This document shows, piece after piece, positions 31,549-62,440 of a DNA stretch of 64,000 nt. Made by a program: the position numbers and the translations under genes. This DNA is from Nitrospirota bacterium. Its GTDB lineage: Bacteria > Nitrospirota > UBA9217. Within the stretch, counting starts at the first letter, position 1, and each line of letters begins with the position of its first letter. Under the pieces are notes generated by a model, which saw only the letters and a list, made by a program, of their open reading frames with translations, did not search any database and was not told the origin of the DNA. The stretch covers positions 64,001 to 128,000 of the forward strand of contig CAWIYV010000007.1 of the NCBI GenBank assembly GCA_963840455.1, read 5' to 3'.

Positions 31549-31550
31549 TA

Positions 31551-31616: not shown

Positions 31617-31660
31617 AAGTAACGTCGAACGAAATACGAACAGCTACCTCGCATCATGTC

Positions 31661-33262: not shown

Positions 33263-33292
33263 AGCATACAAGGCAAGGGGAAGAGGTTTCGC

Positions 33293-33724
33293 ATGATCGA
33301 AGAAGAAGGCATCGTTATCGAAGCAGCTGGCGGTTTGGCGAAGGTGTCCATCCTGGCCAAGAGCGCCTGTGAGAAATGCGCTTCGGCCGGTGTCTGCCAT
33401 CCCGAAGGTGATGACTCCACCATGGAGGCGGCCAATCCTCTGAACGCGAAGAAAGGCCAGAGGGTCAAGGTCGTGCTGGCCCCGCAGGTATTTCTCAAGG
33501 CCTCTATCATCCTCTACGGCATCCCCATGGCCGTCTTTGTCGCCGCCGCCATCATCGGGAAGAATGTGGGATTGAAGTACGGCGGAGAGGCACAGTCGGA
33601 CCTCTGGGCGTTCCTGTCCGGCATGGTCTTCATGCTGGTATCTTTTTTCTTTATCAGGCGCTATAATAAGAAAGTTGAAAAGACCCAGGAATACAAGCCG
33701 GTGATCGTCGAGATCCTCGGCTGA
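33293..33724 (+). CDS. RseC/MucC family protein
   Basis: MIEEEG, SACEKC...C, LYGIP, two TM segments. Confidence 0.85.
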   Translation: MIEEEGIVIEAAGGLAKVSILAKSACEKCASAGVCHPEGDDSTMEAANPLNAKKGQRVKVVLAPQVFLKASIILYGIPMAVFVAAAIIGKNVGLKYGGEAQSDLWAFLSGMVFMLVSFFFIRRYNKKVEKTQEYKPVIVEILG

Positions 33725-33755
33725 TTACGGGCATCAGGGGAGGCGGACATTTCCT

Positions 33756-34022
33756 ATGGCATTGATCTCCACGAATGAACAGGCAAAGAGGCTGGCGCGG
33801 ACGATCCTTTCCGACATTCTTCTGTACAACCAGGCCAAGGTGAAAGAGGGGATCGAGAGGGACAGCCTCTTCGATGTGCTCTCGGAGGAACTCGCCGAAG
33901 GGAGGAAATATTACGAGAGCATGGTTGAAACAGCTCTCCGCCAGAGCACCAACTTCTTCAACGAGGCGGTCATCGACGTCCTGCTCAAACAGGGAGGGAA
34001 ACACAAGTCCGAAATCTGGTAG
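33756..34022 (+). CDS. Small hypothetical protein
   Basis: 88 aa, AKRLARTILSDILLYN...EELAEGR; in operon orientation. Confidence 0.75.
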   Translation: MALISTNEQAKRLARTILSDILLYNQAKVKEGIERDSLFDVLSEELAEGRKYYESMVETALRQSTNFFNEAVIDVLLKQGGKHKSEIW

Positions 34023-34094
34023 CGCCGCGACCGTTGTTCTGCAGCTTATCTGCATATCCCCACAATACAAAATTCTCTTGCAAAGGAGTCGTCC

Positions 34095-36209
34095 ATGCCG
34101 AACTCTGATGTGAAGGAAATCCGCAATATCGCCATACTGTCGCACGGCTCTGCCGGCAAGACCTCGCTTGCCGACGCCATCCTGTACGCCGCGGGGGCGA
34201 TCGACGCACCGGTGAGCGTGGATGGCGGAACTTCCGTGTTCATGCACGAACCGGAAGAGATCGCCCGGAAGATCACGATCACGGCTGCGGTCGGGTTCGC
34301 GGACTGGAAGGGGGTGCGCATCAACATCATCGACACCCCCGGCTACATCAACTTCCTCGAAGAGACGCGGGGAACGCTCCGGGCCGTCGACGGCGCCATC
34401 CTCATCATTTCCGCCATCTCGGGCGTCAAGGCCGAGACCGAGAAGATCTACAAGTTCGCCTGCGACTACGAGATCCCGCGCATCGCCTTCGTGAGCAAGC
34501 TCGACAAGGAGCGCGCCGACTTCTTCCGGGCCGTGGGCGATATGGAAAAGTACTTCTGCAAGAACGCGATCGTGCTCCAGCTGCCGATCGGCCTCGAGGA
34601 CAAGTTCTCCGGCGTCGTCGACCTCATCAGGATGAAAGCGCTGATGTTCGCCCAGGATGGGAGCGGCAAGATCGAGGAGAAGGACGTCCCCGCGGACATG
34701 CGGGACCAGGCAGCGGCCTTCCGGAAGAAGCTGGTGGAGCAGGTTGCCGAGACCGACGATGCGCTGCTCGAGAAGTACCTTGACAAGGGCGATCTTTCCA
34801 ACGACGACGTCATTGCCGGGCTCAAGCATGGAACCCTCGGCGGCGGCCTTCTGCCCGTGCTCTGCGGGTCGCCGGTCAGGAACATGGGCATCCAGCAGCT
34901 CCTCGATATGGTGCTGACCTGCCTGCCGTCGCCAGCAGAGCACGCGCGCATCGTTCAGATCAAGGGCAAAGACCCCAAGACCGGCAATGAGGTCGCCCGC
35001 AAGCCAACAGCGGACGAGCACCTTGCCGCCATCGTGTTCAAGACCATCATCGACCCCTTCGCAGGCAAGCTGTCCCTGGTCCGTGTCCTGTCGGGCACCC
35101 TCAAAGCGGACTCCACGGTCTATAATGCATCGAAGCAGGCCAGGGAGAAGATCGGCTCACTGTTCCACATCCAGGGGAAGAAACAGGTCTCCACCCAGGT
35201 CCTGACGGCCGGCCAGATCGGCGCCGCCGCGAAGCTCAAGGATACGCTCACCGGCGAGACCCTGTGCGCCGAGACGCATCCGATCATTCTGGAATTCGCG
35301 AAGTTCGCGGATCCGGTCATGTCCTACGCCATCGAGCCGAAGTCACGGGGCGATGAGGACAAGGTGAGCATCGGCGTCCATAAGATCCTCGACGAGGACC
35401 GGACGCTCAAGTTCGTCTTTGACGAGCAGACGAAGGAGATGGTCCTCTCCGGCATGGGACAGGTCCATCTCGAGGTGACGATCGAGAAGCTCAGACGGAA
35501 GTTCGGCGTGGACGTGAAGATGAAGACCCCCAAGGTCCCCTACAAGGAGACCATCCGCGCCCGGGCCAAGGCCCAGGGGAAATACAAGAAACAGACCGGC
35601 GGCCACGGCCAGTACGGCGACGCCTGGATCGAGATCGAGCCGCTGCCGCGCGGGACGGGCTTCGAGTTCGTCGACAAGATCGTGGGCGGCGTGATCCCGC
35701 GGCAGTATATCCCGGCCGTGGAGAAGGGCCTGCACGAGGCCCTGCATGAAGGGTTCCTCGCCGGCTATCCCCTCGTGGACATCCGCGCCACGGTGGTGGA
35801 CGGCTCGTACCATACCGTCGACTCGTCCGAGATGTCCTTCAAGATCGCCGCATCCATGGGCTTCAAGAAGGCGATGGAGGCGGCCAAGCCGGTGCTGCTC
35901 GAACCGATCATGAGCGTCGAGGTGGTCGCGCCCGACGATACGCTGGGCGCGGTCATCGGCGACCTGAACTCCCGCCGCGGCAAGGTGCAGGGCGTGGTCC
36001 CGCAGGCCAGCGGCCAGAACATCAAGGCCCTCGTGCCCATGGCCGAGATGCTGTCCTACGCGCCAACGCTGAACTCCCTCACGAGCGGCAGGGGCATGTA
36101 CACCATGGAGTTCTTCGGGTACGAGGACGTACCGAGCCACCTGTCCCAGAAGATCGTGCAGGAGCGGGCCGCTGCCCATCAGGCGCAGAACCACGGCAAA
36201 GAGAAATAA
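34095..36209 (+). CDS. Elongation factor G-like protein (second EF-G)
   Basis: IRNIA, GKTS, DTPG, SGMGQVHLE, KQTGGHGQYG, DGSYHTVDSS; not within an rpsL-rpsG-tuf operon. Confidence 0.92.
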   Translation: MPNSDVKEIRNIAILSHGSAGKTSLADAILYAAGAIDAPVSVDGGTSVFMHEPEEIARKITITAAVGFADWKGVRINIIDTPGYINFLEETRGTLRAVDGAILIISAISGVKAETEKIYKFACDYEIPRIAFVSKLDKERADFFRAVGDMEKYFCKNAIVLQLPIGLEDKFSGVVDLIRMKALMFAQDGSGKIEEKDVPADMRDQAAAFRKKLVEQVAETDDALLEKYLDKGDLSNDDVIAGLKHGTLGGGLLPVLCGSPVRNMGIQQLLDMVLTCLPSPAEHARIVQIKGKDPKTGNEVARKPTADEHLAAIVFKTIIDPFAGKLSLVRVLSGTLKADSTVYNASKQAREKIGSLFHIQGKKQVSTQVLTAGQIGAAAKLKDTLTGETLCAETHPIILEFAKFADPVMSYAIEPKSRGDEDKVSIGVHKILDEDRTLKFVFDEQTKEMVLSGMGQVHLEVTIEKLRRKFGVDVKMKTPKVPYKETIRARAKAQGKYKKQTGGHGQYGDAWIEIEPLPRGTGFEFVDKIVGGVIPRQYIPAVEKGLHEALHEGFLAGYPLVDIRATVVDGSYHTVDSSEMSFKIAASMGFKKAMEAAKPVLLEPIMSVEVVAPDDTLGAVIGDLNSRRGKVQGVVPQASGQNIKALVPMAEMLSYAPTLNSLTSGRGMYTMEFFGYEDVPSHLSQKIVQERAAAHQAQNHGKEK

Positions 36210-36307
36210 CGGGAGACCGCGGAGGCAATTTCCTGCCACAAAGACGCGCAGTCCGTCTTTGTGGCTGTTTTTTCGGGATCGTCTGCCGGTGACCGGAACG
36301 GAGCATC

Positions 36308-37564
36308 ATGTACAGAAAAGACACCCTTGCCAACGGCATCCGGGTCGTGTCCGAGACCCTGCCGAAAACGCGCTCTCTCTCCATCGGCGTATGGGTGAAG
36401 GTGGGTTCGCGGCACGAGCCGAAAGAGATCGGCGGGGTTTCCCATTTCATCGAACACATGTTCTTCAAGGGGACGCACAAGCGGTCGGCCCGGGACATCG
36501 CCACGGAGATCGACTCACTGGGCGGAGAGATGAACGCCTTCACCTCGCAGGAGAGCACCACGTATTACATCAAGGTCCTCGACGAGCACCTCCCCGTTGC
36601 CGTGGACATCCTTTCGGACATCCTGCTCGGCTCGAAGTTCGATCCGGCAGAAATGGAAAAGGAACGGAAGGTCATCCTCGAGGAGATCAAAGGCGTCGAG
36701 GACACGCCCGACGACTACATCCATGAGCTGTTCACGGCCACGGTGTGGCCCGATAACTCCCTGGGCCGCCCCATCCTCGGCACCAAGGAGACCATCAAGT
36801 CGCTGAAGCACAACGACATCGTGAAGTATATCGAAGACTATTACTCCCCCCGGGAGATCGTGATCTCCGTCGCGGGAAACTTCGAGCACGCGCGCCTCAT
36901 CGAACTCCTGGAAAGCGCTTTCGGCAAACTCGCGAGGACCGGCATTCCCAAGCAGGACGTCGCGCCGTCCTACAACCGTGCCGTGACGGTCAGGAAGAAG
37001 CAGCTGGAGCAGGTGCAGGTCTGCCTCGGCTGCAAGGGTCTGCAGTATACCCACGAGGACCGGTTCGTCGTCATGGCGCTGAACACGATCCTCGGGAACA
37101 GCATGAGCTCGAGGCTCTTCCAAGAAGTACGAGAGCAGAACGCGCTGGCGTACTCCATCTACTCCTATGTCACCGCGTACCGGGACGCAGGGCTCCTGAC
37201 GGTCTATGCGGGCACCGATCCCGCGAACACCATCCAGGCAATCCAGCTCATCGTCAAGGAATTCCGGAAGATCCGGGACGAGGGGATCACGTCCGCCGAG
37301 GAAACGCGGGTGAAGGACCAGATCAAGGGGAACCTGGTCCTTTCCCTGGAGACCAGCAACAGCCATATGGGCCGCATCGCGCGCCAGGAGATCTACTTCG
37401 GAAAGTATCTTTCCGTCGACGATATCATCAGGTCCGTTGACAAGGTCACGGCCGAGCAGGTCCAGCGCCTCGCCGGTCAATTGTTCACACGCGAGAGTCT
37501 TTCGCTCAGCATCCTGGGGCCGTTGAACAAAGTTGACGTGCCGGAGTCGGTGCTGGAAATTTAG
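36308..37564 (+). CDS. M16 (pitrilysin-family) zinc peptidase
   Basis: HFIEH (HxxEH), [20 protein letters not shown]. Confidence 0.93.
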
Positions 37565-37572
37565 ACGCATTC

Positions 37573-37654
37573 TACCGCAGAGATCGCCGAGAGCGCAGAG
37601 AATCGCTTATATCAAACGAGACTTTCTCCGCGGGCTCTGCGTGCTCTGCGGTGA
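37573..37654. repeat. Gene-less 9-bp-period inverted-repeat element (E4)
   Basis: TACCGCAGAGATCGCCGAGAGCGCAGAGAA ... TTCTCCGCGGGCTCTGCGTGCTCTGCGGTGA. Confidence 0.85.
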
Positions 37655-37668
37655 GACAGGTTGTTGAT

Positions 37669-38139
37669 ATGTCCGATCATCTTATCGTCGATATACTGCC
37701 GCTCCAGAACGCCGCCGGTCTGCCGGTCCCGCATTACCAGACCGAGCACTCGGCCGGGGTGGACCTTTACGCTGCCGTGGAAGGAGAGCTGGTGATCGGG
37801 CCGGGTACCTGGCGGCTCGTTCCCACGGGCATCGCCGTGGCGATCCCCGAGGGATACGAGGGCCAGGTCAGGCCCCGCAGCGGACTCGCCCTGAAGCACG
37901 GCATAGGCATGCTGAACGGACCGGGTACCATCGACGCGGACTACCGCGGCGAGATCGGCATCATCCTGTTCAACTTCAGCGACAGGCCGTTCCCGGTCCA
38001 TCGGGGGGACCGTATTGCCCAGCTGGTCTTCGCGAAGCTCGCGAAAGCGGGGTTCCGGAAGGTCGACGCTCTGAATGAGACCCGCAGGGGGAGCGGCGGT
38101 TTCGGGCACACGGGGACCAAGCAACATCAAGATCGATAG
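37669..38139 (+). CDS. dut: dUTP diphosphatase
   Basis: [38 protein letters not shown]. Confidence 0.96.
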
Positions 38140-38175
38140 TTCACTATTACTTTTCAAGAGGGCGGTGACATTTAC

Positions 38176-39498
38176 ATGCAAAAGATAAGGGAGACATTTA
38201 TGGTCGTGCTGCTGCTGCTGTTCCTGTCAACCTTGGGCTTTGGCCAGGAGATGAGGGTCACGGAGACGATACTGCCCAACGGTCTGAAGGTCCTGCTCAA
38301 GGAAGAGCACAAGTCTCCGGTGGTCACCTTCCAGGTCTGGTACCGGGTCGGGGCGCGGAACGAACGGCTCGGCAAGACCGGCATGTCGCATCTCCTGGAG
38401 CACATGATGTTCAAGGGGTCGAAGAAATACGGTCCCAAGCAGTTCTCCCAGGTCGTGCAGCGGAACGGCGGCAATGACAACGCCTTCACGAGCAAGGACT
38501 ACACGGCGTACTTCGAGAACCTCGCGGCCGACCGCCTCGAGATCGCCATGGACCTCGAGTCTGACCGCATGCAGAACCTCCTTCTGGACCCCAAGGAATT
38601 CCTGTCAGAGCGCGACGTGGTGAAGGAAGAGCGCCGCATGCGGTACGAGGACGACCCCACGCAGACCATGGTCGAGCAGATGATGGCAACGGCGTTCTCG
38701 GCGCATCCCTACCAGTGGCCGGTGATCGGGTGGATGGCCGATATTGGCAACATAACGCGCGAAGACCTGGAAAAGCATTACCGGACCTACTATGCGCCGA
38801 ACAACGCGACCGTCGTGGTGGTCGGCGACTTCGACCCGAAGAAGACGCTTGCCCTTGTGGACAAGTACTTCGGGAGCATCCCGCGGGGTCCGGAGGTCCC
38901 GAAGGTCGGCGCCGTGGAGCCGAAACAGCTGGGGGAGAAGCGCGTGAAGGTCAAGCAGGAGGCGGAACTGCCGGCGATCTATGCCGGTTACAAGGTTCCC
39001 AACCTCACCAGCGCCGATTCCCATGCCCTGAACGTGCTCCAGAGCATCCTGTCGTCGGGAAAGAGCTCGCGGCTGTACCGGTCCCTGGTCTACGACAAGC
39101 AGATTGCCCTGTATGCGGGCGGCGACTATGATGATGTCTCCACGGACCCGAATCTCTTCTATGTCTACGCCGGCATCATGCCGGGGAAGAGCGAAGACGA
39201 GGTCGAGAGGGCCCTTTACGTTGAGATCGACCGGATGAAGAACGAACCGGTCTCGGATGAGGAGCTTCAGAAAGCGAAGAACCAGGCCGAGGCGAGCTTC
39301 ATCATGAGCCAGGATTCGATGTTCTACCAGGCGATGCTGCTGGGCCAGTATGAGACCGTGGCGAACTGGAAGCTTTTGGGCGCTTACCTGGACGGCATCA
39401 GGGCCGTGAAGAAGGAAGATATCGAGCGTGTGGCCAGGCAGTATTTCACCGAGGACAACCGGACCGTGGGTATCCTGGTGCCGGTGAAGAAACCATGA
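38176..39498 (+). CDS. Exported M16 peptidase, catalytic subunit
   Basis: Signal peptide; HLLEHMMFKG; NAFTSKDYT. Confidence 0.92.
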   Translation: MQKIRETFMVVLLLLFLSTLGFGQEMRVTETILPNGLKVLLKEEHKSPVVTFQVWYRVGARNERLGKTGMSHLLEHMMFKGSKKYGPKQFSQVVQRNGGNDNAFTSKDYTAYFENLAADRLEIAMDLESDRMQNLLLDPKEFLSERDVVKEERRMRYEDDPTQTMVEQMMATAFSAHPYQWPVIGWMADIGNITREDLEKHYRTYYAPNNATVVVVGDFDPKKTLALVDKYFGSIPRGPEVPKVGAVEPKQLGEKRVKVKQEAELPAIYAGYKVPNLTSADSHALNVLQSILSSGKSSRLYRSLVYDKQIALYAGGDYDDVSTDPNLFYVYAGIMPGKSEDEVERALYVEIDRMKNEPVSDEELQKAKNQAEASFIMSQDSMFYQAMLLGQYETVANWKLLGAYLDGIRAVKKEDIERVARQYFTEDNRTVGILVPVKKP

Positions 39499-39560
39499 CA
39501 CGGGGACGGGAGACGGGGAGATCGAGACACGGGACGCGGGAACAGGGGACACGGAGAAAC
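39496..39560 (+). repeat. 8-bp-period tandem arm (GACACGGG-like)
   Basis: TGACACGGGGACGGGAGACGGGGAGATCGAGACACGGGACGCGGGAACAGGGGACACGGAGA. Confidence 0.7.
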
Positions 39561-39639
39561 GACAGATGCGGAATGTAAAAAAGTGCGGGATCGTCGAGAC
39601 GTATGATATTTTCATTCGCAGCGATCATGCTGTTCTCGC

Positions 39640-40926
39640 ATGGGGGTGCCTGCGGTTCACGCCGCCGAACCGCTGGGCAAGCGCATCGTGCTGGAGAACG
39701 GCATGGTCCTCCTGCTCTCCGAGAAGCATGAGCTGCCGGTGGTCACCGTGAGCATGGCCATCAAGGCGGGGGGCGTCGTCGAACCGGCGGACAAGCCGGG
39801 CCTGGCGTCCATCACGGCATCGCTCCTGACCCAGGGCACGAAGTCGCGCACGGCGAACCAGATCAGCCGGGAGATCGACTTCATCGGCGGCTCCCTCTCG
39901 GTCTCAGGCGGGGACGATTTTGCCAGCGCGAACCTTCGGGTGCTGAAGAAGGACGTCGGGAAAGGCTTCGACCTCCTGGCAGATGTGCTGATGAACCCCG
40001 TATTCGACCAGAAGGAGATCGATCGGAAGGTGAAGGAGACCCTGGCTGCGATCCAGCGCCAGAAGGAGGAACCCGAGGTGATCGCCGGCGAGGCATTCAC
40101 CAAGGCGGTCTTCGGGGCTCATCCCTACGGCAGGACGAACGACGACGTGGCCGCATACCTTCCCCGGATCACGAAACGGGACATCCAGGATTTCTACTCC
40201 CAGCGGTACGGTCCGAACGACTGTATCGTCGCCATTGTGGGCGATGTGACCGAAAAAGAGACCGCTGCGCTTCTGCGGCAGCGCTTCGCGGACTGGAAGC
40301 CTGCGGAGAAGGGCGAGCCTCCCCATGCCTCCCCTCCCGCGATCACGTCTCTCGCGGTCAGGAAAATGGACAAGAATATCACGCAGGCGAACATCGCTAT
40401 GGGGCAGGTGGGGATCAGCAGGGAAAACCCTGATTTTTATGCCGTCGTGGTCATGAACTACATCCTGGGAGGCGGAGGCTTCTCTTCCCGGCTCATGGAC
40501 AATATCCGGGACAACCGGGGTCTGGCCTATGACGTGCACAGCAGCTTTGCGGCCCAGAAGGAGCCCGGCGCGTTCCGCGTATGGACGCAGACGAAGAGCG
40601 AGTCGGCGAACGAGGCCATCGCGGAGATCTTCAAGGAGCTGAAACGGATCAGGACCGAGCCGGTATCGGACAAGGAACTGGCCGATGCCAAGGCCTATTT
40701 GACCGGCAGCTTCCCGCTCCGGATGGACACGTCCGCCAAGATCGCCGGGATCCTTACGAGCATCGAGATCTACCATCTGGGACTCGATTATCCGCAGCGC
40801 TACGCCAGCCTGATCAACGGCGTCACGAGGGAAGACATCCTCCGCGTGGCGAAGAAGTACATCGACCCGGACCATATGGTCATGGTCGTGCTGGGGAACC
40901 AGGAAAAGATCAAGCTGAAATATTAG
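39640..40926 (+). CDS. M16 peptidase partner subunit lacking HxxEH; signal-peptide region upstream looks frameshifted
   Basis: LENGM, HPYGR, ILGGGGFSSRLMDNIRDNRGLAY. Confidence 0.88.
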   Translation: MGVPAVHAAEPLGKRIVLENGMVLLLSEKHELPVVTVSMAIKAGGVVEPADKPGLASITASLLTQGTKSRTANQISREIDFIGGSLSVSGGDDFASANLRVLKKDVGKGFDLLADVLMNPVFDQKEIDRKVKETLAAIQRQKEEPEVIAGEAFTKAVFGAHPYGRTNDDVAAYLPRITKRDIQDFYSQRYGPNDCIVAIVGDVTEKETAALLRQRFADWKPAEKGEPPHASPPAITSLAVRKMDKNITQANIAMGQVGISRENPDFYAVVVMNYILGGGGFSSRLMDNIRDNRGLAYDVHSSFAAQKEPGAFRVWTQTKSESANEAIAEIFKELKRIRTEPVSDKELADAKAYLTGSFPLRMDTSAKIAGILTSIEIYHLGLDYPQRYASLINGVTREDILRVAKKYIDPDHMVMVVLGNQEKIKLKY

Positions 40927-40949
40927 GATGAGGAGCAGAAGTCAGACTT

Positions 40950-41241
40950 GAAGCTCCCTGCAGCAAGCTACAGGGAATCTTCGACCCTTAAGGAAGTATC
41001 CTTATTCTCATCGCTCGCTCCTGGATTTAAGCTCCCTACTGCAAGAGGCGTGGAGCTTCGATCCTTAGGGTAGTGTTTATCCTAATCGCTCGCTAACCCG
41101 CAGAAAACTGCGGGGATGCGCTCGCTCCTGGATTTAAGCTCCCTACTGCAGGAGGTGTGGAGCTTCGATCCTTAGGGTAGTGTTTATCCTGATCGCTCGC
41201 TAACCCGCAGAAAACTGCGGGGATGCGCTCGCTCCTGGATT
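40950..41241 (+). mobile_element. Tandem of three TT|C-inserting hairpin elements (78, 107, 107 bp)
   Basis: Units 40950-41027, 41028-41134, 41135-41241; each starts (G/T)AAGCTCCC and ends CTCGCTCCTGGATT; units 2 and 3 differ at 3 positions. Confidence 0.85.
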
Positions 41242-41291
41242 CAGGAGACGGGAGAGCTTCAATACCTTCTGGCTTCTGGCTCCTCAAGCTT

Positions 41292-43049
41292 ATGCCTTCA
41301 ATCAAGATCCTTCCCGACAATCTCATCAACAAGATCGCCGCCGGTGAGGTGGTGGAGCGCCCGGCATCCGTGGTCAAAGAGCTCGTCGAGAACGCCATCG
41401 ATGCCGGCGCCACGGAGATATTCGTCGAAATAGAACAGTCAGGAAAGCGCCTGATCGTTGTTTCGGACAATGGCAGCGGCATGTCACGGGAGGATGCCCG
41501 GACCTCGTTCGAACGGCACGCCACGAGCAAGATAACGTCGGAGTCCGACCTTGAAAGCATCAGGACCATGGGATTCCGCGGCGAGGCGCTGTCCAGCATC
41601 GCGTCTGTGGCGCAGGTGACCATGAAGACCGCGCAGAAAGGCGCGAATACGGGGACCCTGGTCCAGATCGAGGGCGGGACGGTCAAGGCGATTGCGGACG
41701 CCGCGGCCCCGCAGGGGACCACGATCGAGGTGAACCACCTCTTCTACAACACCCCCGCACGACTGAAGTTCCTGAAAAGCGCAGCCACCGAGCTGTCGCA
41801 TGTCATTGCCGCCGTGTCCCACCAGGCGCTTGCCCGTCCCGAGATCCGGTTCCGGCTGACGCACAACAAGACGATGCTGCTTGATCTGCCGATTGCAAGC
41901 AGCATTCGGGAACGGGCGTTCTCGATATACGGGAACGAACTTGCTGACAGCCTCATGGACTTCGCAGGCGGACGAGATAGCGTCCGGGTCTACGGCCTGA
42001 TCGCCAGACCGAACTATACCCGCGGGGACCGGACCTATCAGGAGTTCTATATCAATAACAGATATGTGAAGAACGCATCGCTGACCCACGCCCTGTACGA
42101 GGCATACAAGGAACTGATCATGCGCGACCGGCATCCAGTCGCGTTCGTGTTCATCGATATCGATCCTCTTCTCGTCGACGTGAACGTCCACCCCGCCAAG
42201 GCGGAGGTCCGGTTCCGGAACCAGTCGCAGGTCCACGACCTTGTGCGGGACGTGATCCGTGAGGCCCTGGGGAGCCACGGACGCCCGACTCGGCAGGCGG
42301 ACATCGGCGGCCATGAGAGCGTACAGGGATATACGGACCGGGTGAAGGAGGCTATCGCTGATTTCACTTCCCGTTCGCCGGAATACGGTACCACACACCC
42401 TCTCTCTCCGGGCGAGGGGGCAGGGACCAGGAGCGATGTTCCGCCGCCGCGCCTCCCTGTCGCCGCGTCTTCCCGTGAGCTCTTTCCCTTCGCCCAGGTC
42501 CATGACTCCTTCATCGTCGCGCAGTCGAACGACGGCATGGCGCTCATCGATCAGCATGCCGCGCACGAACGGGTGCTGTTCGAAAAGCTCCAGGACCAGT
42601 ATGCTGCGGGGACGATCCCGGTCCAGGACCTGCTCTTCCCGGTGCAGGTGGAACTCGGCCATGCCGAGAAGGAACTGCTCGCCGAATACCTCCCCGGGCT
42701 GAACCGTCTCGGACTGCTCGTCGAGGATTTCGGCGGGGCCACGTTCGTCATCAAGGCCGTCCCCGCTCTCCTGGCCAATGGGGACCATAAAAGGCTTCTC
42801 ATCGATATCATCGACGAGATCAAGGTCCACGGAAAAAGCGGGAAGATGGATGCGCTTCGCGACGAGGTCCTGAGCGTCATGGCATGCCATCCGGCCATCA
42901 AGGTCCACCGCAGGTTGAGCATGCAGGAGATGGAGGGCCTCATCCGGGACCTCTTTGCCTGCCGCATGCCCCACTCGTGCCCCCACGGCCGTCCGACGAT
43001 AGTGCGGTTCTCGATGGAAGATATCAAGAAGATGTTCAAGAGGACATGA
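41292..43049 (+). CDS. mutL: DNA mismatch repair endonuclease MutL
   Basis: IAAGEVVERPASVVKELVEN, GFRGEAL, DVNVHPAK, DQHAAHER, CPHGRP. Confidence 0.97.
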   Translation: MPSIKILPDNLINKIAAGEVVERPASVVKELVENAIDAGATEIFVEIEQSGKRLIVVSDNGSGMSREDARTSFERHATSKITSESDLESIRTMGFRGEALSSIASVAQVTMKTAQKGANTGTLVQIEGGTVKAIADAAAPQGTTIEVNHLFYNTPARLKFLKSAATELSHVIAAVSHQALARPEIRFRLTHNKTMLLDLPIASSIRERAFSIYGNELADSLMDFAGGRDSVRVYGLIARPNYTRGDRTYQEFYINNRYVKNASLTHALYEAYKELIMRDRHPVAFVFIDIDPLLVDVNVHPAKAEVRFRNQSQVHDLVRDVIREALGSHGRPTRQADIGGHESVQGYTDRVKEAIADFTSRSPEYGTTHPLSPGEGAGTRSDVPPPRLPVAASSRELFPFAQVHDSFIVAQSNDGMALIDQHAAHERVLFEKLQDQYAAGTIPVQDLLFPVQVELGHAEKELLAEYLPGLNRLGLLVEDFGGATFVIKAVPALLANGDHKRLLIDIIDEIKVHGKSGKMDALRDEVLSVMACHPAIKVHRRLSMQEMEGLIRDLFACRMPHSCPHGRPTIVRFSMEDIKKMFKRT

Positions 43050-43068
43050 TTATGAGGAGGGAAGTTCG

Positions 43069-43818
43069 ATGATGGACTGGCTGACCAATCCGGAAGCATG
43101 GATCGCACTTCTGACGCTCACAGCGCTCGAGATCGTGCTGGGCATCGACAACATCATCTTTATCTCCATCCTCGTCAACAGGCTGCCGGATCACCAGCGG
43201 CAGAAGGGCAGGGTGCTCGGGCTCGGCTTTGCCATGGTGACGCGCATCCTGCTGCTGCTCTCGATCACCTGGGTCATGAAGCTGACCTCACCGCTGTTCA
43301 CCGTTCTCGCGAAGGATATCTCGGGGCGTGACATCATTCTCATCGGCGGGGGGCTCTTCCTGCTCTGGAAGAGCACCGTGGAGATCCACGAAAGCCTGGA
43401 GGGGGCGGGTGAGGAGCGCACGGCAGGCGCGCTTGCCGGCTTCGCCGCGACCATCGCCCAGATCGCCATCATCGACATCATCTTCTCGCTTGATTCGGTG
43501 ATCACCGCCGTGGGGCTGGCGCAGGACGTAGCAGTTATGATCATCGCCATCATCGCGGCAGTCGTGGTCATGATGTTCGCGTCGAAGGGGATCGGCGAGT
43601 TCGTGGACCGCCACCCGACCATCAAGGTGCTGGCGCTCAGTTTCCTTGTGGTGATCGGGGTCACGCTGATCGCCGAGGGGTTCGGCTGGCACGTGCCGCG
43701 GGGATACATCTACTTCGCCATGGCCTTCTCCACGATTGTGGAGATGCTGAACATCAGGATGCGGAAGAAGGCTCAACCGGTGAAGCTGCATAAGGCAGTC
43801 GTCGACAAGCCCGAATAA
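43069..43818 (+). CDS. TerC family membrane protein
   Basis: LEIVLGIDNIIF, DIIFSLDSVITAVG, HVPRGYIYFAMAFS. Confidence 0.93.
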   Translation: MMDWLTNPEAWIALLTLTALEIVLGIDNIIFISILVNRLPDHQRQKGRVLGLGFAMVTRILLLLSITWVMKLTSPLFTVLAKDISGRDIILIGGGLFLLWKSTVEIHESLEGAGEERTAGALAGFAATIAQIAIIDIIFSLDSVITAVGLAQDVAVMIIAIIAAVVVMMFASKGIGEFVDRHPTIKVLALSFLVVIGVTLIAEGFGWHVPRGYIYFAMAFSTIVEMLNIRMRKKAQPVKLHKAVVDKPE

Positions 43819-43819
43819 T

Positions 43820-44770
43820 ATGCCTTCCGAACAGAAGCCCATCCTCATCCTCGCAGGGCCCACCGCGGTCGGAAAGACCGAAGCCTCGCTCCTGCTCGCC
43901 CGGGAGTGGGGTGCGGAGATCGTAAGCGCGGACTCGATGCAGATCTACCGCGGCATGGACATCGGGACGGCAAAGCCCTCTCCGGAGCAGCGGGCGCTGG
44001 TCTACCACCACATGATCGATATCGTGGACCCTGCCCAGCCCTACAGTGTCGGCGATTATCTCCGTGATGCGCGGAACGCCATCGACGGCATCCTGAAGAG
44101 CGGGGGCACGCCCGTCGTGGTGGGGGGGACGGGCCTGTACATCCGAGCTTTGATGCGCGGGCTGCTGCACGGGCCGCCGGCGGACATGGAGCTGCGGGAG
44201 CGGCTCCTGAGGAAGGAATCCGATAACGGCGAGGGAACGCTCTACGCGGACCTCGTCAGGCTCGATCCCGAGGCGGCCATCAAGATCCACCCGAATGACC
44301 TGCGGCGCACGATCAGGGCGCTGGAGGTGTACTACATCAGGGATCGGAAGCTTTCGGACCTCCAGAAGACCCACGCCTTTCAAGAGAAGACGCATGCGTT
44401 CCGGCTCCTCTTCCTGGTCAGGGGCCGGTCCGAGCTCTACCCGCGCATCGAACAGCGCGTGGACCAGATGATCTCCCTGGGGCTCGAGGACGAGGTCAAG
44501 AGGCTGATCCTGAAAGGGTACAGCAGAGACCTCATTTCCATGCAGGCCATCGGATACAGCCATTTTATCGATTATTTCAACAACCGGGCATCCTTCGAGG
44601 AGACTGTGGACCTTCTGAAGCGGGACACCAGGCGGTTCGCGAAGCGACAGTTCACCTGGTTCAGGCGGGAGCCGGACGCCCGGTGGGTGGACATCACGGG
44701 GCTCGAAACGCCCGGGGAAATAGTGCGGAAGATAAAGAAAACCATTGAAATTCCAGATAACTTGGTATAA
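43820..44770 (+). CDS. miaA: tRNA dimethylallyltransferase
   Basis: GPTAVGKT, SADSMQIYRGMDIGTAKP, GGTGLY, FAKRQFTW. Confidence 0.97.
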   Translation: MPSEQKPILILAGPTAVGKTEASLLLAREWGAEIVSADSMQIYRGMDIGTAKPSPEQRALVYHHMIDIVDPAQPYSVGDYLRDARNAIDGILKSGGTPVVVGGTGLYIRALMRGLLHGPPADMELRERLLRKESDNGEGTLYADLVRLDPEAAIKIHPNDLRRTIRALEVYYIRDRKLSDLQKTHAFQEKTHAFRLLFLVRGRSELYPRIEQRVDQMISLGLEDEVKRLILKGYSRDLISMQAIGYSHFIDYFNNRASFEETVDLLKRDTRRFAKRQFTWFRREPDARWVDITGLETPGEIVRKIKKTIEIPDNLV

Positions 44771-44841
44771 GATTGCAAAACTACAAAAATGGTTTGTGCG
44801 GTGCGGGATAATACTCTTGTTCCCGCGCCCCGGAGGATTTG

Positions 44842-45114
44842 ATGGGCAAGTCGCAGGTGAATCTGCAGGACATCTTCTTGAACCAGATGCGCAAGGAAAA
44901 GATCCCCGTGACCATGTACCTGGTGAACGGAGCCCGCATATCCGGGACCATCAAGGGCTTCGATAACTTCGTAATCCTCATGAAGCAGGAGAACCAGCAG
45001 CTCGTTTACAAACATGCCATCTCGACCATCATCCCCGAGAAGCCGGTAGAGCTTCTCGAAGGCATTGAAGCAAAGAAAGAGGCCGACCCGGCATCCGGAA
45101 CGGCGCAAAGCTAG
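44842..45114 (+). CDS. hfq: RNA chaperone Hfq
   Basis: [26 protein letters not shown]. Confidence 0.97.
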
Positions 45115-45119
45115 ACCTG

Positions 45120-45204
45120 TTACCGCAGAGCACGCAGAGACCGTTGAGAAAGGATCTTGTTCCGGGCTGTCCTTTCGAGCACGCTCCGCGGTCTCCGCGG
45201 TTAA
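45120..45204. repeat. Gene-less 9-bp-period inverted-repeat element (E5)
   Basis: TTACCGCAGAGCACGCAGAGACCGTTGAGAA ... CTCCGCGGTCTCCGCGGTTAA. Confidence 0.8.
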
Positions 45205-45224
45205 ACTATTTAAGGACATCAAGA

Positions 45225-46115
45225 ATGGCGAAAAGGACCGCACGAACGGAACAGGCGGCTGTCGGTGTCATCGGCGGCAGTGGCCTCTACGAGATCGAGG
45301 GGCTCACGAACATCAGGTCCACCAAGGTCGCCACACCCTTCGGAAGACCGTCGGACGACTATATCGTCGGCACGCTCCACGGCATGCGGATCGCGTTCCT
45401 CCCGCGCCATGGACGGGGCCACCGCATCATGCCCACGGATATCAACTACCGGGCGAACATCTACGGGATGAAGAAGCTGGGCGTGGAGCGGATCATCTCG
45501 GTCAGCGCCGTGGGCAGCATGAAGGAAGAGATCAAGCCGGGGGACATCGTGGTCCCGGACCAGTTCTATGATCATACGAAGCACCGCCGAAGCACGTTCT
45601 TTGGGAATGGCATTGTCGCCCACGTGGGGATGGCGGACCCGGTATGCGCCGGCCTCTGCTCGGTGCTGATCGATGCGGGGATCAAGGTCGGGGCAACGGT
45701 CCACCGGGGCGGCACCTACCTCTGCATGGAGGGTCCGCAGTTCTCAACCCGGGCCGAGTCCATGACCTACCGCGAATGGAACGTAGATGTCATCGGCATG
45801 ACGAACGCCACCGAGGCCAAGCTTGCGCGGGAGGCGGAGATCTGCTACAGCACCATCGCCTTGGCCACGGACTATGACTGCTGGCACCACAGTGAAGAGG
45901 CCGTGACGGTCGAAGCGGTGCTCGCCGTGATGAAGCACAACATCGAAACGTCCAAGGCCATGATCCGCCGGGCGGTCCAGATGCTGCCAAAGATGCGGGC
46001 CTGCGGATGCGGTGAGGCGCTCCGGAACACCATCATGACGCCGGCAAAGCTTGTCCCGGCGAAGACGAAGAAGGACCTCGCGCCGATCATCGGGAAGTAT
46101 CTGAAAAACAAATAA
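45225..46115 (+). CDS. mtnP: S-methyl-5'-thioadenosine phosphorylase
   Basis: IGGSG, PRHG, SAVGS, EGPQFSTRAES, IGMT, ATDYDCW. Confidence 0.95.
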   Translation: MAKRTARTEQAAVGVIGGSGLYEIEGLTNIRSTKVATPFGRPSDDYIVGTLHGMRIAFLPRHGRGHRIMPTDINYRANIYGMKKLGVERIISVSAVGSMKEEIKPGDIVVPDQFYDHTKHRRSTFFGNGIVAHVGMADPVCAGLCSVLIDAGIKVGATVHRGGTYLCMEGPQFSTRAESMTYREWNVDVIGMTNATEAKLAREAEICYSTIALATDYDCWHHSEEAVTVEAVLAVMKHNIETSKAMIRRAVQMLPKMRACGCGEALRNTIMTPAKLVPAKTKKDLAPIIGKYLKNK

Positions 46116-46121
46116 CAAAGC

Positions 46122-46208
46122 TTTTTTACCGCAGAGGTCGCAGAGGACGCAGATGGTTCATTGATATTGAATTCTTTCTCCGCGGTCTCCGCGTGCTCTG
46201 CGGTGAAA
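46122..46208. repeat. Gene-less 9-bp-period inverted-repeat element (E6)
   Basis: TTTTTTACCGCAGAGGTCGCAGAGGACGCAGA ... TCTCCGCGGTCTCCGCGTGCTCTGCGGTGAAA. Confidence 0.85.
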
Positions 46209-46235
46209 TGATCTATTATTGTTTTGGAGGTTGTT

Positions 46236-47144
46236 GTGAGTTTGCTCGTCGTGGGCACCGTGGCCCTGGATTCGGTCAAGACGCCCTTCGGGAACGTGGA
46301 CAATGCGCTCGGCGGGTCCGCCACCTATTTCTCCACATCGGCCAGCTATTTCACCGACGTGCGGCTCGTGGCGGTCATCGGCGAGGACTTCCCCAAGGAG
46401 CACATCAACTTTCTCAAGAGCAAGAGCATTGATGTCCGCGGATTGGAGGTCCAGAAGGGCCAGACCTTCCGATGGAAGGGTGAATACGGTTATGATCTGA
46501 ACGAAGCCCGCACGCTTGCCACGGACCTGAACGTGCTTGCCACGTTCAAGCCGACCATCGTGGAGGACTACCGGGGCTCCGATGTGGTGTTCCTCGCGAA
46601 CATCGATCCGGAGATCCAGCTTGATGTCCTCCGCCAGGTAAAACGGCCCAAGCTGGTTGCCTGTGACACGATGAACTACTGGATATCCAGCAAGCTCGAC
46701 GCCCTGAAGCGGACGCTCAAGGAGGTAGATCTCCTGACCATCAATGAAGGTGAGGTGCGGCAGCTCGCGGGCGAGGCCGGACTGGTGAAGGCGGCGAAGG
46801 CCGTCCAGGCCATGGGCCCGAAGACCGTCGTCGTGAAGCAGGGGAGCTATGGGGCGCTCATGTTCCACGAACACAGCGTGTTCAGCGCACCAGCCTATCC
46901 GCTCGAGTCCGTGTTCGATCCCACGGGCGCCGGTGATTCCTTTGCCGGAGGTTTCATGGGATACCTGGCGAACACCATGAACTTCACCGAGACGAGCATG
47001 CGGCAGGCAGTCATTTTCGGAAGCGTCATGGCGTCGCTGAACGTGGAATCCTTCAGCCTTGACAGGCTGCGCAGCCTGGACTACAAGGAGATCGAGGGAC
47101 GCTATCGGGAATTCAAGAAGCTTACGCATTTCGAAGATATCTGA
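46236..47144 (+). CDS. PfkB/ribokinase-family kinase
   Basis: GGSATY, DTMNYWI, DPTGAGDSFAGG. Confidence 0.92.
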   Translation: MSLLVVGTVALDSVKTPFGNVDNALGGSATYFSTSASYFTDVRLVAVIGEDFPKEHINFLKSKSIDVRGLEVQKGQTFRWKGEYGYDLNEARTLATDLNVLATFKPTIVEDYRGSDVVFLANIDPEIQLDVLRQVKRPKLVACDTMNYWISSKLDALKRTLKEVDLLTINEGEVRQLAGEAGLVKAAKAVQAMGPKTVVVKQGSYGALMFHEHSVFSAPAYPLESVFDPTGAGDSFAGGFMGYLANTMNFTETSMRQAVIFGSVMASLNVESFSLDRLRSLDYKEIEGRYREFKKLTHFEDI

Positions 47145-60359: not shown

Positions 60360-60380
60360 GTACAACCAGTTATTATCTGT
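60360..60380 (-). other. Putative attI (crossover G|TTGTAC at 60366)
   Basis: GTTGTAC lies 14 bp before the first cassette ATG and matches that cassette's R'' (GTCCAAC) at 6 of 7 positions. Confidence 0.65.
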
Positions 60381-60387
60381 GGGACTT

Positions 60388-60416
60388 ATCGTAGCATAGA
60401 CTAGCCGCTCGGTCAA
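60388..60416 (-). promoter_or_regulatory. Putative cassette promoter Pc
   Basis: Minus strand TTGACC-17 bp-TACGAT with TG extension, pointing into the array. Confidence 0.6.
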
Positions 60417-61084
60417 CGAAGTAGGAAATAATTGAGGGCCTATTAAATTGATTTTATTACATTTGGGTCAAACGGCTAACATGCACTTTATGGAATATCT
60501 GAAAATCCGAAATAACATGCAAATTCGGAATATCCTTTTGAGGGGGGATAACAGCATGGAGCCCATCCCGAATGACATTCTGACGCAGTTTAATGCAGTA
60601 TTGGCTCTAAAAGCCGTTCCGTCGGCATCGCACGACGATTACCGGAAGTGGTTGCGCTATTTTCTTGATTACCGGCTCAAGTATCCTCCACCGGAGCAGA
60701 GATCGGAGCAGGTACGATTGTTCATCGAGAAGCTCCGCTCGAAAGGCGAGTCCGGCAGGTCCCTAAACGACGCTGCGCATGCTCTCTCGCTCTTCTTCGC
60801 GCTGCGATCGCCACAGGCCGGAACAACTGCTCTCGCAGGGGATCAGATGCGGTCGCTTGGCATCGCCGAGATATCGTCGGTTGCGCGCGGCGTTCCATTG
60901 GCAAAGCAGGGTGCGCGGGAAGTCGATTCCGGCGGGTATGTCGCGGCAGCGGCAGGAAAGATGCCGCAAAACAGGGGCGGCAGGAAATATAACGAGTGGT
61001 GGTCCCTGGAAAGGGCAAGATCGCCTGAATGGGATGCTGTCGTCATCGATAGGCTGGCAGGAGAGATCAAAGCGCGGCACTATT

Positions 61085-61169
61085 TAAGCTCCAAAATGAA
61101 AGAGCATAGAGCTTCGATTCTCAAGGTGTAAGCATAATCGTATCCGCTCGCTCCGCTCACTCCAGAATT
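61085..61169 (+). mobile_element. TT|C-inserting hairpin element (85 bp) inside intI
   Basis: CACTATT|TAAGCTCC...CTCCAGAATT|CGCGTAAG; removal gives CAC TAT TCG CGT AAG (HYSRK). Confidence 0.85.
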
Positions 61170-61594
61170 CGCGTAAGACGCTGAAGGCCTATGCCGGCTG
61201 GTCGCGAAAGTTCCAGATCTACCTGAAGAACAAGCCGCCCCAGGACCTGTCAGCTGATGATGTGAAGTCCTATCTGACCCATCTCGCCGTCCAGTGCAAA
61301 GTGTCGGCGTCTACCCAGAACCAGGCCTTCAACTCGCTCCTGTTCCTATTCCGGCACATACTGAAGCGGGACTTTGGCGACCACAAGGACATTCCGCGAG
61401 CAAAGCGTTCGAGCTATATCCCCGTGGGGCTCACGCGCCAGGAGATCGATTCGGTCCTTCAGCATCTGACGCCCTCCTCTGACCTGGTCGTGAAGCTCCT
61501 GTACGGGTGCGGCCTGCGGCTTTTCGAGTGCGCCAAGCTTCGTCTCGAAAATTTCAATATCGAGGCAACATGGTTGCCCGAATAATAAGATTTC

Positions 61595-62071
61595 ACCGCG
61601 AAGGCGCGAAGGACGCGAGGACGTCCATAGGAGGGACCCAGTGAGAGATATCGAAACTATCGCCTCAAAGATCGTTGCAGCTGCAATGAAAGTCCATACT
61701 GTTCTGGGCCCAGGCTTGTTGGAATCAGCCTATCAGAAATGTATGCAATATGAATTGCAGAAAGACGGGTTAAAGGTAGCGTGTGAAGCGGCTTTGCCGA
61801 TCGTTTATGAAAAGATAACCATTGATGCGGGTTATCGAATTGATATGATGGCAGATGACATGATTATCATCGAAAATATAACGGTGGAAAAACTGCTGCC
61901 GATCCATGAGGCTCAATTGCTGACATATTTGAAGCTGAGAAGCTGCAAGCTGGATTCCTTCTTAACTGGAATGTACCGCGTAGGAAAGATGGTATCAAGA
62001 GGATGGTCAACAATCTATGAAGGTTGCGTCTCAATGTTAAGGTTTCCTCGCGTTCCTTGCGCCTTCGCGGT
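61595..62071 (+). mobile_element. GxxExxY element bounded by 27-bp inverted repeats
   Basis: ACCGCGAAGGCGCGAAGGACGCGAGGA (61595-61621) and TCCTCGCGTTCCTTGCGCCTTCGCGGT (62045-62071). Confidence 0.75.
61641..62020 (+). CDS. GxxExxY protein (PD-(D/E)XK-like); 1-nt frameshift near 61953
   Basis: VHTVLGPGLLESAY, GYRID, HEAQLLTYLKL, then the shifted tail FLLNWNV...DGIKRMVNNL*. Confidence 0.9.
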
Positions 62072-62147
62072 AATGAATTGTCTGGCTTCGTTTCGCATGC
62101 CTTCCGCCACCTATCTCCTGCAGGCCAATTACGATATCCGCACCATT

Positions 62148-62259
62148 GAAGCTCCTTGCAGCAAGCTGCAGGGAGTCTTCGATCCTCAAGGTTATAATAT
62201 TTATTCTAATCGCTCGCTCACCCCGCAACTGTCTACAGGGCTTGCTCTCGCTCCTGATT
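62148..62259 (+). mobile_element. TT|C-inserting hairpin element (112 bp) inside intI
   Basis: ACCATT|GAAGCTCC...CTCGCTCCTGATT|CAGGAA; removal gives ACC ATT CAG GAA TTG (TIQEL). Confidence 0.88.
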
Positions 62260-62440
62260 CAGGAATTGCTCGGCCATACCGATGTCCGGACCACGATGAT
62301 CTACACGCACTGCGTGCCGAGCAGGACGATCAAGGAACTGAAAACCCGCTCGATTTCTGAGCGGGCCTTTGGCGGAGCATAACGTGGTTGAAGCCCCGAT
62401 CAAGTTCGGGGTTGGCTCTGCGGCGACAATGTTAAAACAA

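Follow-up and report, generated by a model that had tools for sequence, protein, structure and literature searches.

A short gene cassette lies at positions 61595-62071 of a 64,000-nucleotide stretch of DNA from a Nitrospirota bacterium (contig CAWIYV010000007.1 of assembly GCA_963840455.1), the whole of which is referred to here as the window. It carries a small nuclease gene of the GxxExxY family between two inverted arms built of tandem 7-bp words, and arms of this kind also occur without the gene as intergenic hairpins. Judged from the sequences, these gene cassettes and gene-less hairpins look like a widespread and apparently undescribed selfish DNA system. In the proposed reading, regarded as about evenly balanced between right and wrong, the nuclease would recognise the words in duplex DNA, its cutting would provoke repair, and the gene-less hairpins would be its dependent partners. 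This reading is favoured by covariation between protein residues and word letters, the uniformity of the word positions that appear to be read, the co-occurrence of gene and arms within genera, the joint replacement of gene and arms at one site, and strong selection on the protein.

The window cassette

The genome to which the window belongs (G000) measures 4.03 Mb in 14 contigs, C1-C14; other genomes are labelled G001 onward. A repeat search returned a single inverted pair at 61595-61621 and 62045-62071, with arms of 27 nt that are 89% complementary and have 423 nt between them. On the forward strand, the left arm consists of ACC followed by the words CGCGAAG, CGCGAAG and CGCGAGG at a spacing of 8-9 bp, and the right arm is an inverted copy of it, with three words and the end GCGGT. 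An earlier sequence-only reading had described inverted arms of three units around the GxxExxY open reading frame (ORF) as near-perfect; the arms stand, and the adjective is slightly generous at the complementarity measured. Outside the left arm, positions 61580-61594 of the forward strand hold an A-rich stretch and then TTTC ahead of AC, and do not belong to the integrase gene that hosts the cassette, as homology to the integrase of the same-genus genome G002 stops at 61563. In general, an arm comprises two to four copies of a 7-bp word of the form C-R-C-N-R-A-G/T, placed 8-11 bp apart, with the outward end TTTyAC.

The gene between the arms occupies 61641-62018 on the forward strand, with a GTG start after AGGAGG and an original-frame stop at 62016-62018. 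It matches TIGR04256 (GxxExxY) with 109.4 bits against a cut-off of 35, over profile positions 2-99 of 116, and PF13366 (PDDEXK_3) with 104 bits against a cut-off of 22; the motif that names the family reads G-L-L-E-S-A-Y. At 61872-61880, the window copy reads E-N-I in place of the E-L-K of intact copies, so that the catalytic lysine is replaced, and one base has been lost near 61955-61961 relative to a sister copy at C14:500166-500653. This loss shifts the frame, and therefore the profile match ends before the last 17 of its positions. Having neither the intact catalytic D...E-x-K nor full length, the window copy is, to judge from its sequence, dead, which agrees with the earlier description of it as decayed. 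Homology between the window copy and the sister copy begins and ends at the outer ends of the arms; therefore, the arms and the gene together define the unit. The cassette is a discrete unit of about 0.5 kb, consisting of a small PD-(D/E)XK nuclease gene between two inverted arms.

Arms around GxxExxY genes across phyla

Six GxxExxY loci were found in G000, each of them enclosed by inverted arms of short periodic words. CACAGAG arms surround the intact copy at C9:141018, and CACGAAT arms surround both the intact copy at C4:158452 and the copy at C7:63015. The window copy and its sister (C14:500243), both dead, have CGCGAAG arms, and the intact copy at C14:178478 has the variant words GACACAGAAGAGGCGGATA. 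Three of the six copies are decayed.

The same arrangement was sought in a first set of 80 loci, drawn from Pseudomonadota, Bacteroidota, Acidobacteriota, Planctomycetota, Chloroflexota, Verrucomicrobiota, Cyanobacteriota and other groups, with two archaeal records among them. For 79 of these loci (L039 was excluded for its short flank) and for 414 shifted control windows, the 200-bp segments to the left and right of the gene were compared and their highest-scoring inverted match was recorded. The median score was 36, compared with 17 in the controls; 69 of the 79 loci scored above the controls' 95th percentile, and 50 scored above the highest control value. The arms in this set consist of two to four copies of C-R-C-N-R-A-G. 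An arm, the gene and an inverted arm follow one another in 41 of the 80 loci, the gene lies between two whole hairpins in five or six, and six loci show no pattern words on either side. In a further 80 loci, taken from the sample of genomes of the window's phylum (the third set), 55 have at least three pattern words, and all of the remaining 25 have inverted arms made of other periodic words, such as ACAGGAT, CACGGAT/CACGGTT and CACTGAG. The proposed check that GxxExxY genes in this and related genomes should be flanked by inverted periodic arms was therefore borne out, in 6/6 loci of G000, 69/79 of the first set and 80/80 of the phylum sample.

Gene-less hairpins

Seven gene-less hairpins, with no strand assigned, lie in the window. 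The six that had been listed from the sequence alone were all recovered: 636-774 (CGCNGAG words and a 75-nt loop), 25084-25173 (CGCNGAG words), 28541-28641 (the degenerate words CGCAGAG, CGCCGAG and CACAGAG, with a decayed right arm), 37573-37654 (CGCNGAG words, with other elements or none at the orthologous site of relatives), 45120-45204 (two words per arm) and 46122-46208 (CGCNGAG words, with the left arm replaced in the closest relative). The seventh, at 30202-30294, carries the CACGAAT variant and was absent from that list. A two-word pattern, CRCNRAGNNCRCNRAG, was counted 20 times in the window, where chance would give 0.15, and a census of G000 with the word C-R-C-N-R-A-K yielded 141 paired elements against 6 in shuffled sequence. 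Loops measure at most 250 nt in 115 of these 141 elements. The word classes in the census are CGCNGAG (51 elements), CGCNAAG (44), CACNGAG (16), CACNAAT (13) and a few others.

The outer ends of 93 gene-less copies share a consensus, which is an A-rich stretch, nnn and TTTyAC, at both ends. In G000 the two ends are usually unlike, with TAC at one and CAC at the other (29 among the pairs listed). Such ends had been taken as a hint of polarity, which is not supported as a marker of gene or transcription direction: the direction of the TAC/CAC ends is not tied to that of neighbouring genes (19 versus 15), and it is inconsistent in gene-bearing loci elsewhere. Among 82 elements with assigned flanking genes, the neighbours are co-directional in 53 cases, divergent in 16 and convergent in 13, and 11 elements fall within crude ORF calls. 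A reading as intrinsic terminators is not supported, since the ends run TTTyAC-stem-GTrAAA with no immediate T run and convergent pairs are not enriched (13/82). A terminator scan scored none of the five elements in 27000-46900 as terminator-like, and a search of the whole window against Rfam gave no matches. A classical terminator-like hairpin with a T run is present at 36235-36265; its stem is one CACAAAG word and its complement, and it may be either a coincidence or a one-word relative of the arms.

Conservation of words rather than pairing

When folded as RNA, the seven window elements are more stable than shuffled sequences (z -2.4 to -6.2), and the predicted structure is a chain of 7-bp helices separated by 2x2 internal loops, with a mismatch often at word position 4. 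Across 115 gene-less copies, the spacers agree between the arms in 16.7% of positions against 29% expected from composition, and word position 4 agrees in 43% against 36%. Within single elements, pairs of words agree at positions 2, 5 and 7 with frequencies of 0.92, 0.95 and 0.98, compared with 0.69, 0.51 and 0.90 when words are shuffled among elements; position 4 is almost free (0.47 versus 0.36). The hairpin is systematically imperfect, the conserved feature being the words and not their pairing. Two other explanations do not fit: mechanical homogenisation of whole units would also have homogenised position 4 and the spacers, and selection for the stem would have kept the spacers complementary, while these lie below chance. 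Because the words are kept and the spacers are not complementary, the GxxExxY protein most likely reads the words, and the pattern agrees with sequence-specific recognition of all but one of the seven word positions.

Covariation between the protein and its words

The columns of a protein alignment were scanned against the word variant at each locus. Five loci of the first set (L028, L058, L069, L075 and L079) were excluded from the alignment for internal stops. The combined set contained 183 proteins; word position 5 could be assigned for 130 of them, and residue 7 is present in 129 of these. Word position 5 tracks residues 7 and 8, which are the T-E of ELTEK at the start of helix 1 in the reference protein: threonine at residue 7 goes with G and serine or alanine with A in 116 of 129 loci, and at residue 8 glutamate, glycine or aspartate goes with G and lysine, tyrosine or histidine with A. 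Mutual information with position 5 reaches 0.40 at residue 7, 0.39 at residue 8 and 0.28 at residue 11; the maximum in 200 shuffles is 0.18. Residue 4 is associated with word position 2 (asparagine with CGC) at 0.18 against a shuffle maximum of 0.17. Word position 7 (G/T) was discarded as a covarying site, as it tracks a whole subfamily and is confounded.

The association at residue 7 recurs in each set. The first set, spread over many phyla, gave 32 Thr-G, 12 Ser-A, 5 Ser-G and 2 Thr-A loci. An independent metagenome set, which was fished with the C4-type protein, gave Ser-A in 22 of 22 cases with the words CACGAAT and CGCGAAT, Thr-G in 5 of 5 (CGCAGAT, CACAGAT and CACTGAT), and one alanine with A. 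In the phylum set there were 26 Thr-G and no Thr-A loci, 25 non-Thr-A loci (13 alanine, 9 serine and 3 others) and 3 non-Thr-G loci. The copies examined from the window's own genus also fit the rule, with ELTEK beside CACAGAG, DLTEK beside CACGGAG (G003), EWSYK beside CACGAAT, and IASK and IAKR beside CGCGAAG. Base composition is not the cause, because 33 of 36 paralogues follow the rule within the 11 genomes that contain both word classes. When the first 13 residues were removed before tree building, 24 changes were counted for position 5, 23 for the Thr/non-Thr state and only 29 for the joint state; therefore, about 18 changes coincide. Concordance is 0.90 for residue 7 and 0.82 for the best control column.

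Residues 4, 7, 8 and 11 would lie on one face of the helix. More speculatively, a contact in duplex DNA close to the thymine methyl group would account for methyl-bearing threonine facing G:C and the smaller serine or alanine facing A:T. The covariation of residues 7 and 8 with word position 5 is believed to be new.

The protein family

The account of PF13366/TIGR04256 in PMC3424549 presents a very large family, lists its function as unknown and records "multiple transfers" for PF13366. In an alignment of 78 sequences, all have D67 and K79, and at least 90% have E77; the name motif (G22, G24, E27 and Y30) is conserved, with G, E and Y invariant. A confident AlphaFold model, with a predicted local distance difference test score (pLDDT) of 96 and a predicted template modelling score (pTM) of 0.88, shows a minimal PD-(D/E)XK fold. 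Foldseek found nothing in the PDB at an E-value of 0.001 or better, the best match being Cas4 SSO0001 at 3.8e-3, and a sequence-profile search of the PDB gave no matches. A wide structural search returned Z scores of 8.1 for Cas4 SSO0001, 7.9 for BglII, 7.9 for BpuSI, 6.6 for Hjc and 5.3-5.8 for splicing endonucleases. The modelled fold appears generic, and no single structural family stands out. Orthologous intact copies show a ratio of nonsynonymous to synonymous divergence (dN/dS) of 0.015-0.034 at a dS of 0.6-0.7, and a single subfamily has members in many phyla and in archaea. To judge from sequence and model, the GxxExxY protein is probably active and maintained.

Co-occurrence of gene and arms

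A total of 151 phylum genomes were searched for three-word arms and for the GxxExxY family; related genomes are not independent, and the results are given as counts with no test. In the window's family, 20 of 27 genomes contain the gene, each with 16-361 arms, and the seven gene-free genomes contain 0-5 arms. The two features also appear and disappear together within genera: in genus g11, G015 and G090 have both and G058 and G078 have neither, and in genus g27, G072 and G116 have both and G096, G105 and G147 have neither. The expected link between arms and gene is thus a complete split in the window's family, with exceptions in both directions outside it.

Elements at orthologous sites

The intact cassette at C9:140973-141462 lies between a patatin-like gene and a UbiA-like gene, and its gene is kept in five of the six genomes of the genus. 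At this site, G001 and G002 have the same gene with CACAGAG arms, and G003 and G005 have a different gene variant with CACGGAG arms. G004 has no gene; its site holds a CGCAGAT hairpin together with a CACGGAG-type right arm that stands alone. Between G003 and G000 the flanks are 97.5% and 94.7% identical and the synonymous sites of the gene are saturated (proportion of synonymous differences, pS, 0.82); therefore, the whole cassette has been exchanged. Among orthologues of the C9 cassette, 42 core word positions of the arms are unchanged and two spacer letters differ, at a dS of 0.6-0.7. In G005 (contig C41 of that genome; loci L124/L128), the nuclease gene is preceded by four tandem copies of the left arm plus about 45 bp (period about 72 bp), which look like the outcome of repeated duplication of the arm together with adjacent sequence.

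Six gene-less sites were compared within the genus, namely 37573, 45120 and 46122 in the window and three sites in C9:220791-240290. Some genomes keep the element, with its words intact and its loops and spacers drifted. Others have at the same sites hairpins built of CAGGAGA/CATGAGA, GTCAGGAG, about 15 CAGTAGA copies, AATGCAAA, GTAAGGG or ACAGGAT, and still others have hardly any intergenic spacer, with 45 bp at site 37573 in G017 and 40 bp at site 46122 in G010. The closest relative, G003, has at C9:221791 a CACAGAG/CACGGAG hairpin between flanks that are 95.5% and 97.6% identical, as against the CGCAAAG hairpin of G000. At site 37573, G016 (contig C3; locus L119) has a 507-bp element with arms of AGTCAGGAG words and a four-helix-bundle gene as cargo, at the gene junction where the window has a gene-less CGCAGAG hairpin. 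From these alignments, the sites are reused rather than random. The comparison of orthologous intergenic regions, which had been suggested as a means of finding filled, empty and absent states, thus revealed elements that are kept, lost or swapped whole, with no clean filled-versus-empty junction. Joints across the gene in public contigs were considered as excision products and rejected, because their flanks are unlike the window locus and they represent other gene-less hairpins. No RNA run is among the public runs listed for the stretch, and the metagenome contigs listed share at most 0.43 of its words.

Other cargo and comparison with known systems

Genes for four-helix-bundle proteins (TIGR02436) occur at five loci in G000: C14:314078, C11:402181, C13:87240, C1:257771 and C11:111524. 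Inverted arms flank four of these, built from different tandem words (GTAGGTA; six copies of CAGTC plus 6 nt; four of GACGCGG; and TGCAAAG) with periods of 7-11 bases, and the locus at C11:111524 has a repeat-like right flank only. A third type of cargo was observed at C9:240236-240721, where CACAGAG arms surround an ORF on the minus strand; it has about 120 codons, begins like a signal peptide and does not encode a nuclease.

A closely comparable structure is the ORF-bearing intervening sequence (IVS) of 23S ribosomal RNA (rRNA), which occurs in Coxiella burnetii, Leptospira and others. As reported for Coxiella burnetii in PMC4990558, the IVS in helix 45 has a 28-bp terminal stem with three tandem heptamers, GACAGAT, in strain-variable number, contains an S23p four-helix ORF, and is cleaved by RNase III within the stem. 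A mobile-element origin of such sequences has long been proposed (Ralph and McClelland 1993 and Burgin 1990, as cited in PMC4990558). In both kinds of element, a small ORF is enclosed by terminal inverted repeats whose stem spans about 28 bp and includes tandem heptamers, and the four-helix-bundle genes of G000 sit in like arms outside rRNA. In contrast to the IVS, the present elements lie between or inside protein genes and not in helix 25 or 45 of 23S rRNA, their cargo is a nuclease, and hundreds of gene-less copies exist; moreover, RNase III cutting has been shown for the rRNA elements alone. By analogy, the cassettes are best seen as relatives of ORF-bearing IVS outside rRNA, with a nuclease as cargo.

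The second comparison is with repetitive extragenic palindromic (REP) sequences, their hairpin-forming doublets (REPINs) and REP-associated tyrosine transposases (RAYTs). In published descriptions of these systems, an enzyme gene is flanked by inverted short repeats that are also dispersed as gene-less hairpin doublets, and RAYT genes persist for long periods at orthologous sites with the enzyme under purifying selection. The present system shares the placement of an enzyme gene within inverted repeats that are also dispersed as gene-less intergenic hairpins, the co-occurrence of gene and repeats, the long persistence at orthologous sites and the purifying selection on the enzyme. Unlike RAYTs, the enzyme is PD-(D/E)XK by profile and fold and not an IS200-like HUH Y1 protein, and each arm is an array of direct 7-bp words and not a single palindrome. 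Further differences are that a genome holds several paralogous genes with a separate word variant for each, that the loops are unrelated, and that sites are reused by different variants.

Homing endonucleases with a PD-(D/E)XK fold exist, for example I-Ssp6803I. Free-standing homing endonuclease genes resemble the cassette as small nuclease genes that persist or spread through DNA cutting and repair copying, as is proposed for the present cassette, and in the replacement of whole cassettes at a fixed site between close relatives. The cassette differs from them in having no intron or intein, in having putative recognition sites on both sides of the gene that are dispersed in about 100-350 arrays per genome, and in that gene-less sites are not converted to gene-bearing ones at a visible rate. 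Miniature inverted-repeat transposable elements (MITEs) and small insertion sequences are likewise short dispersed intergenic elements with inverted ends; the present elements differ in having neither target-site duplications nor a common internal sequence, and are unlike the 117-bp MITE of G000. Overall, the system is rated as an enzyme-associated dispersed palindromic repeat system or an IVS-type cassette, whose enzyme and arm design differ from known ones. In the main texts of papers searched by family names, IVS and REPIN/RAYT, no published description of the arms or of a PD-(D/E)XK repeat system was found; the papers listed for the name GxxExxY mention it in passing.

Proposed mechanism and its alternatives

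In the proposed mechanism, the nuclease would use the first turns of its N-terminal helix (residues 4, 7, 8 and 11) to recognise and bind the words in double-stranded DNA and would cut at or near the word arrays, leading to recombinational repair. Repair would then copy, keep or replace arm-bounded segments. As a result, words would remain intact, cassettes would be swapped at the same intergenic sites, and gene-less hairpins would persist as non-autonomous partners. Where an arm pair is transcribed within an operon, it would form an interrupted stem, as in the 23S rRNA IVS. For this scheme, we infer binding, cleavage, the mode of spread and RNA processing.

Several observations weigh against this mechanism. 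The layout is not exclusive to the nuclease, as four-helix-bundle genes and one secreted-protein ORF lie in like arms. The loops show no relationship from one gene-less copy to the next: of 6555 pairs, 24 are alike, one of which resembles a segmental duplication, and a blastx comparison of 66 loops with GxxExxY and four-helix proteins found none similar (best E 0.086). The gene-less copies are therefore neither simple copies, deletion derivatives nor plain MITE copies, and the nuclease-repair model leaves both the unrelated loops and the reuse of sites by unrelated word families unexplained. No direct repeats beyond chance that would indicate a target-site duplication were found around gene-less copies at offsets 0-5, and no transposition event, clean filled/empty junction or excision product was seen in the comparisons and public contigs. 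PD-(D/E)XK enzymes are not known to perform strand transfer. In G000, the commonest word class, CGCNGAG, has no gene bearing exactly those words, and the CGCNAAG class is served by two dead genes only. Arms without a detected gene occur in G023 (28 arms, 98% complete) and G051 (14 arms, 100% complete), as well as in G038 (11 arms), G091 (104 arms, 78% complete) and G097 (44 arms, 70% complete). The gene occurs without pattern-matching three-word arms in G019, G037, G039 and G119, although the G119 gene has six CGCAGAT words, which the pattern misses by requiring G at position 7. An independent-pairs test restricted to well-supported branches gave about four pairs in the same direction and none in the opposite one (p 0.125), and is underpowered. 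Finally, the word variant follows the protein tree weakly at position 2 (11 changes versus 14.2) and not at all at position 5 (14 versus 13.4).

Some of these observations lend themselves to a passenger model, in which the arms are an independent repeat family of the REP or IVS kind kept by another factor, and GxxExxY genes simply land in the loops. The four armed TIGR02436 loci of G000, the secreted-protein ORF in CACAGAG arms at C9:240236-240721, the hairpins of quite different words at the same sites in relatives, and the gene-free arms of G023, G051 and G038 are all compatible with it. It is nevertheless unlikely, given that residues 7 and 8 covary with word position 5 even among paralogues of one genome, that CRCNRAG-type arms are nearly universal around GxxExxY genes across phyla, that gene and arms are jointly present or absent inside two genera, and that both were replaced together at the C9 site. 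The transcribed stem might instead be what matters, as an RNase III site, an insulator or a stabiliser in operons, with the nuclease acting on RNA or being dispensable. Such an RNA-level role would agree with the better-than-shuffled folding of the seven window elements, the 53 of 82 elements between co-directional genes, the splicing endonucleases among the weaker fold matches, and the heptamer-bearing IVS stem of Coxiella burnetii that is cut by RNase III (PMC4990558). It is considered improbable in view of spacers that are less complementary than chance with position 4 barely above it, end polarity that is unbiased relative to transcription direction, and the absence of terminator-like scores in 27000-46900 and of Rfam matches in the window. 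The tracking of G:C to A:T by threonine to serine, which would fit a thymine-methyl contact in DNA, would also point away from RNA.

A domesticated host function, in which nuclease and arrays serve the cell, for example in DNA binding, repair targeting or defence with self marks, and are inherited vertically, would account for the low dN/dS at a locus kept in five of six genomes of the genus and for word cores that are kept at orthologous sites while loops and spacers drift. RAYT genes, as described in the literature, offer a precedent for a domesticated enzyme with repeats. This function is quite improbable, as three of the six copies in G000 are decayed, congeneric genomes lack both gene and arms, cassettes insert into and destroy genes such as the window integrase, and the wide range of one subfamily, from many bacterial phyla to archaea, agrees with the "multiple transfers" recorded in PMC3424549. 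The pair of autonomous and non-autonomous elements that the sequence-only reading had proposed, resembling RAYT/REPIN and built on a PD-(D/E)XK protein, stands in part. Its core, that gene-bearing cassettes and gene-less hairpins belong to one system, is upheld by near-universal arms, co-occurrence and covariation; it needs qualifying for the lack of observed transposition, duplication or excision, the unrelated loops, the imperfect hairpin, the reuse of sites and the other cargo in the same layout.

A bolder proposal, which is tentative and on the doubtful side, joins a simple, evolvable recognition code in the N-terminal helix (residue 4 for word position 2; residues 7 and 8 for position 5) to a broader grouping. 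The GxxExxY, four-helix-bundle and rRNA IVS cassettes would then form one large, undescribed, self-maintaining "word-array" class whose members persist and supplant each other by nuclease-provoked gene conversion at fixed intergenic sites in more than a dozen bacterial phyla and archaea.

The host integrase and neighbouring insertions

The window cassette lies in a broken integron-type tyrosine recombinase gene (60448-62382, forward strand), which is preserved in pieces at 60448-61082, 61169-61563, about 62090-62143 and 62262-62382. The same-genus genome G002 has an intact integrase frame of 490 codons at another locus (L140). This frame is matched by window positions 60363-61082 and 61169-61563, and homology returns weakly near 62090 and clearly at 62267. 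Relative to it, about 310 bp of the integrase are replaced by the cassette, in agreement with the earlier observation that the cassette occupies the missing middle of intI. The window integrase has a long N-terminal extension and is broken by three separate insertions. Besides the cassette, these are an 86-bp insertion at 61083-61168 and a 117-bp MITE copy at 62144-62261, neither with an assigned strand. The 86-bp insertion is absent from G002, single-copy in G000 and outside the cassette; its first 44 bases resemble C11:261750 and C8:77567. The MITE is unrelated to the cassette and also occurs at L001:356-474. It has 245 matches in G000, of which 155 are near full length, is conserved end to end, and has dozens to hundreds of matches in each same-genus genome.

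Implications

If the proposed reading is true, the GxxExxY family would gain a substrate, namely its own flanking words, and the origin of hundreds of intergenic hairpins per genome would be explained. The long-unexplained IVS of rRNA would be tied to a wider class of elements. The reading would also supply a testable recognition rule, with Thr-Glu for GAG and Ser/Ala-Lys for AAG. More broadly, it would represent a second, enzymatically unrelated form of the RAYT/REPIN way of life, and would bear on how populations of repeats persist in bacterial genomes.

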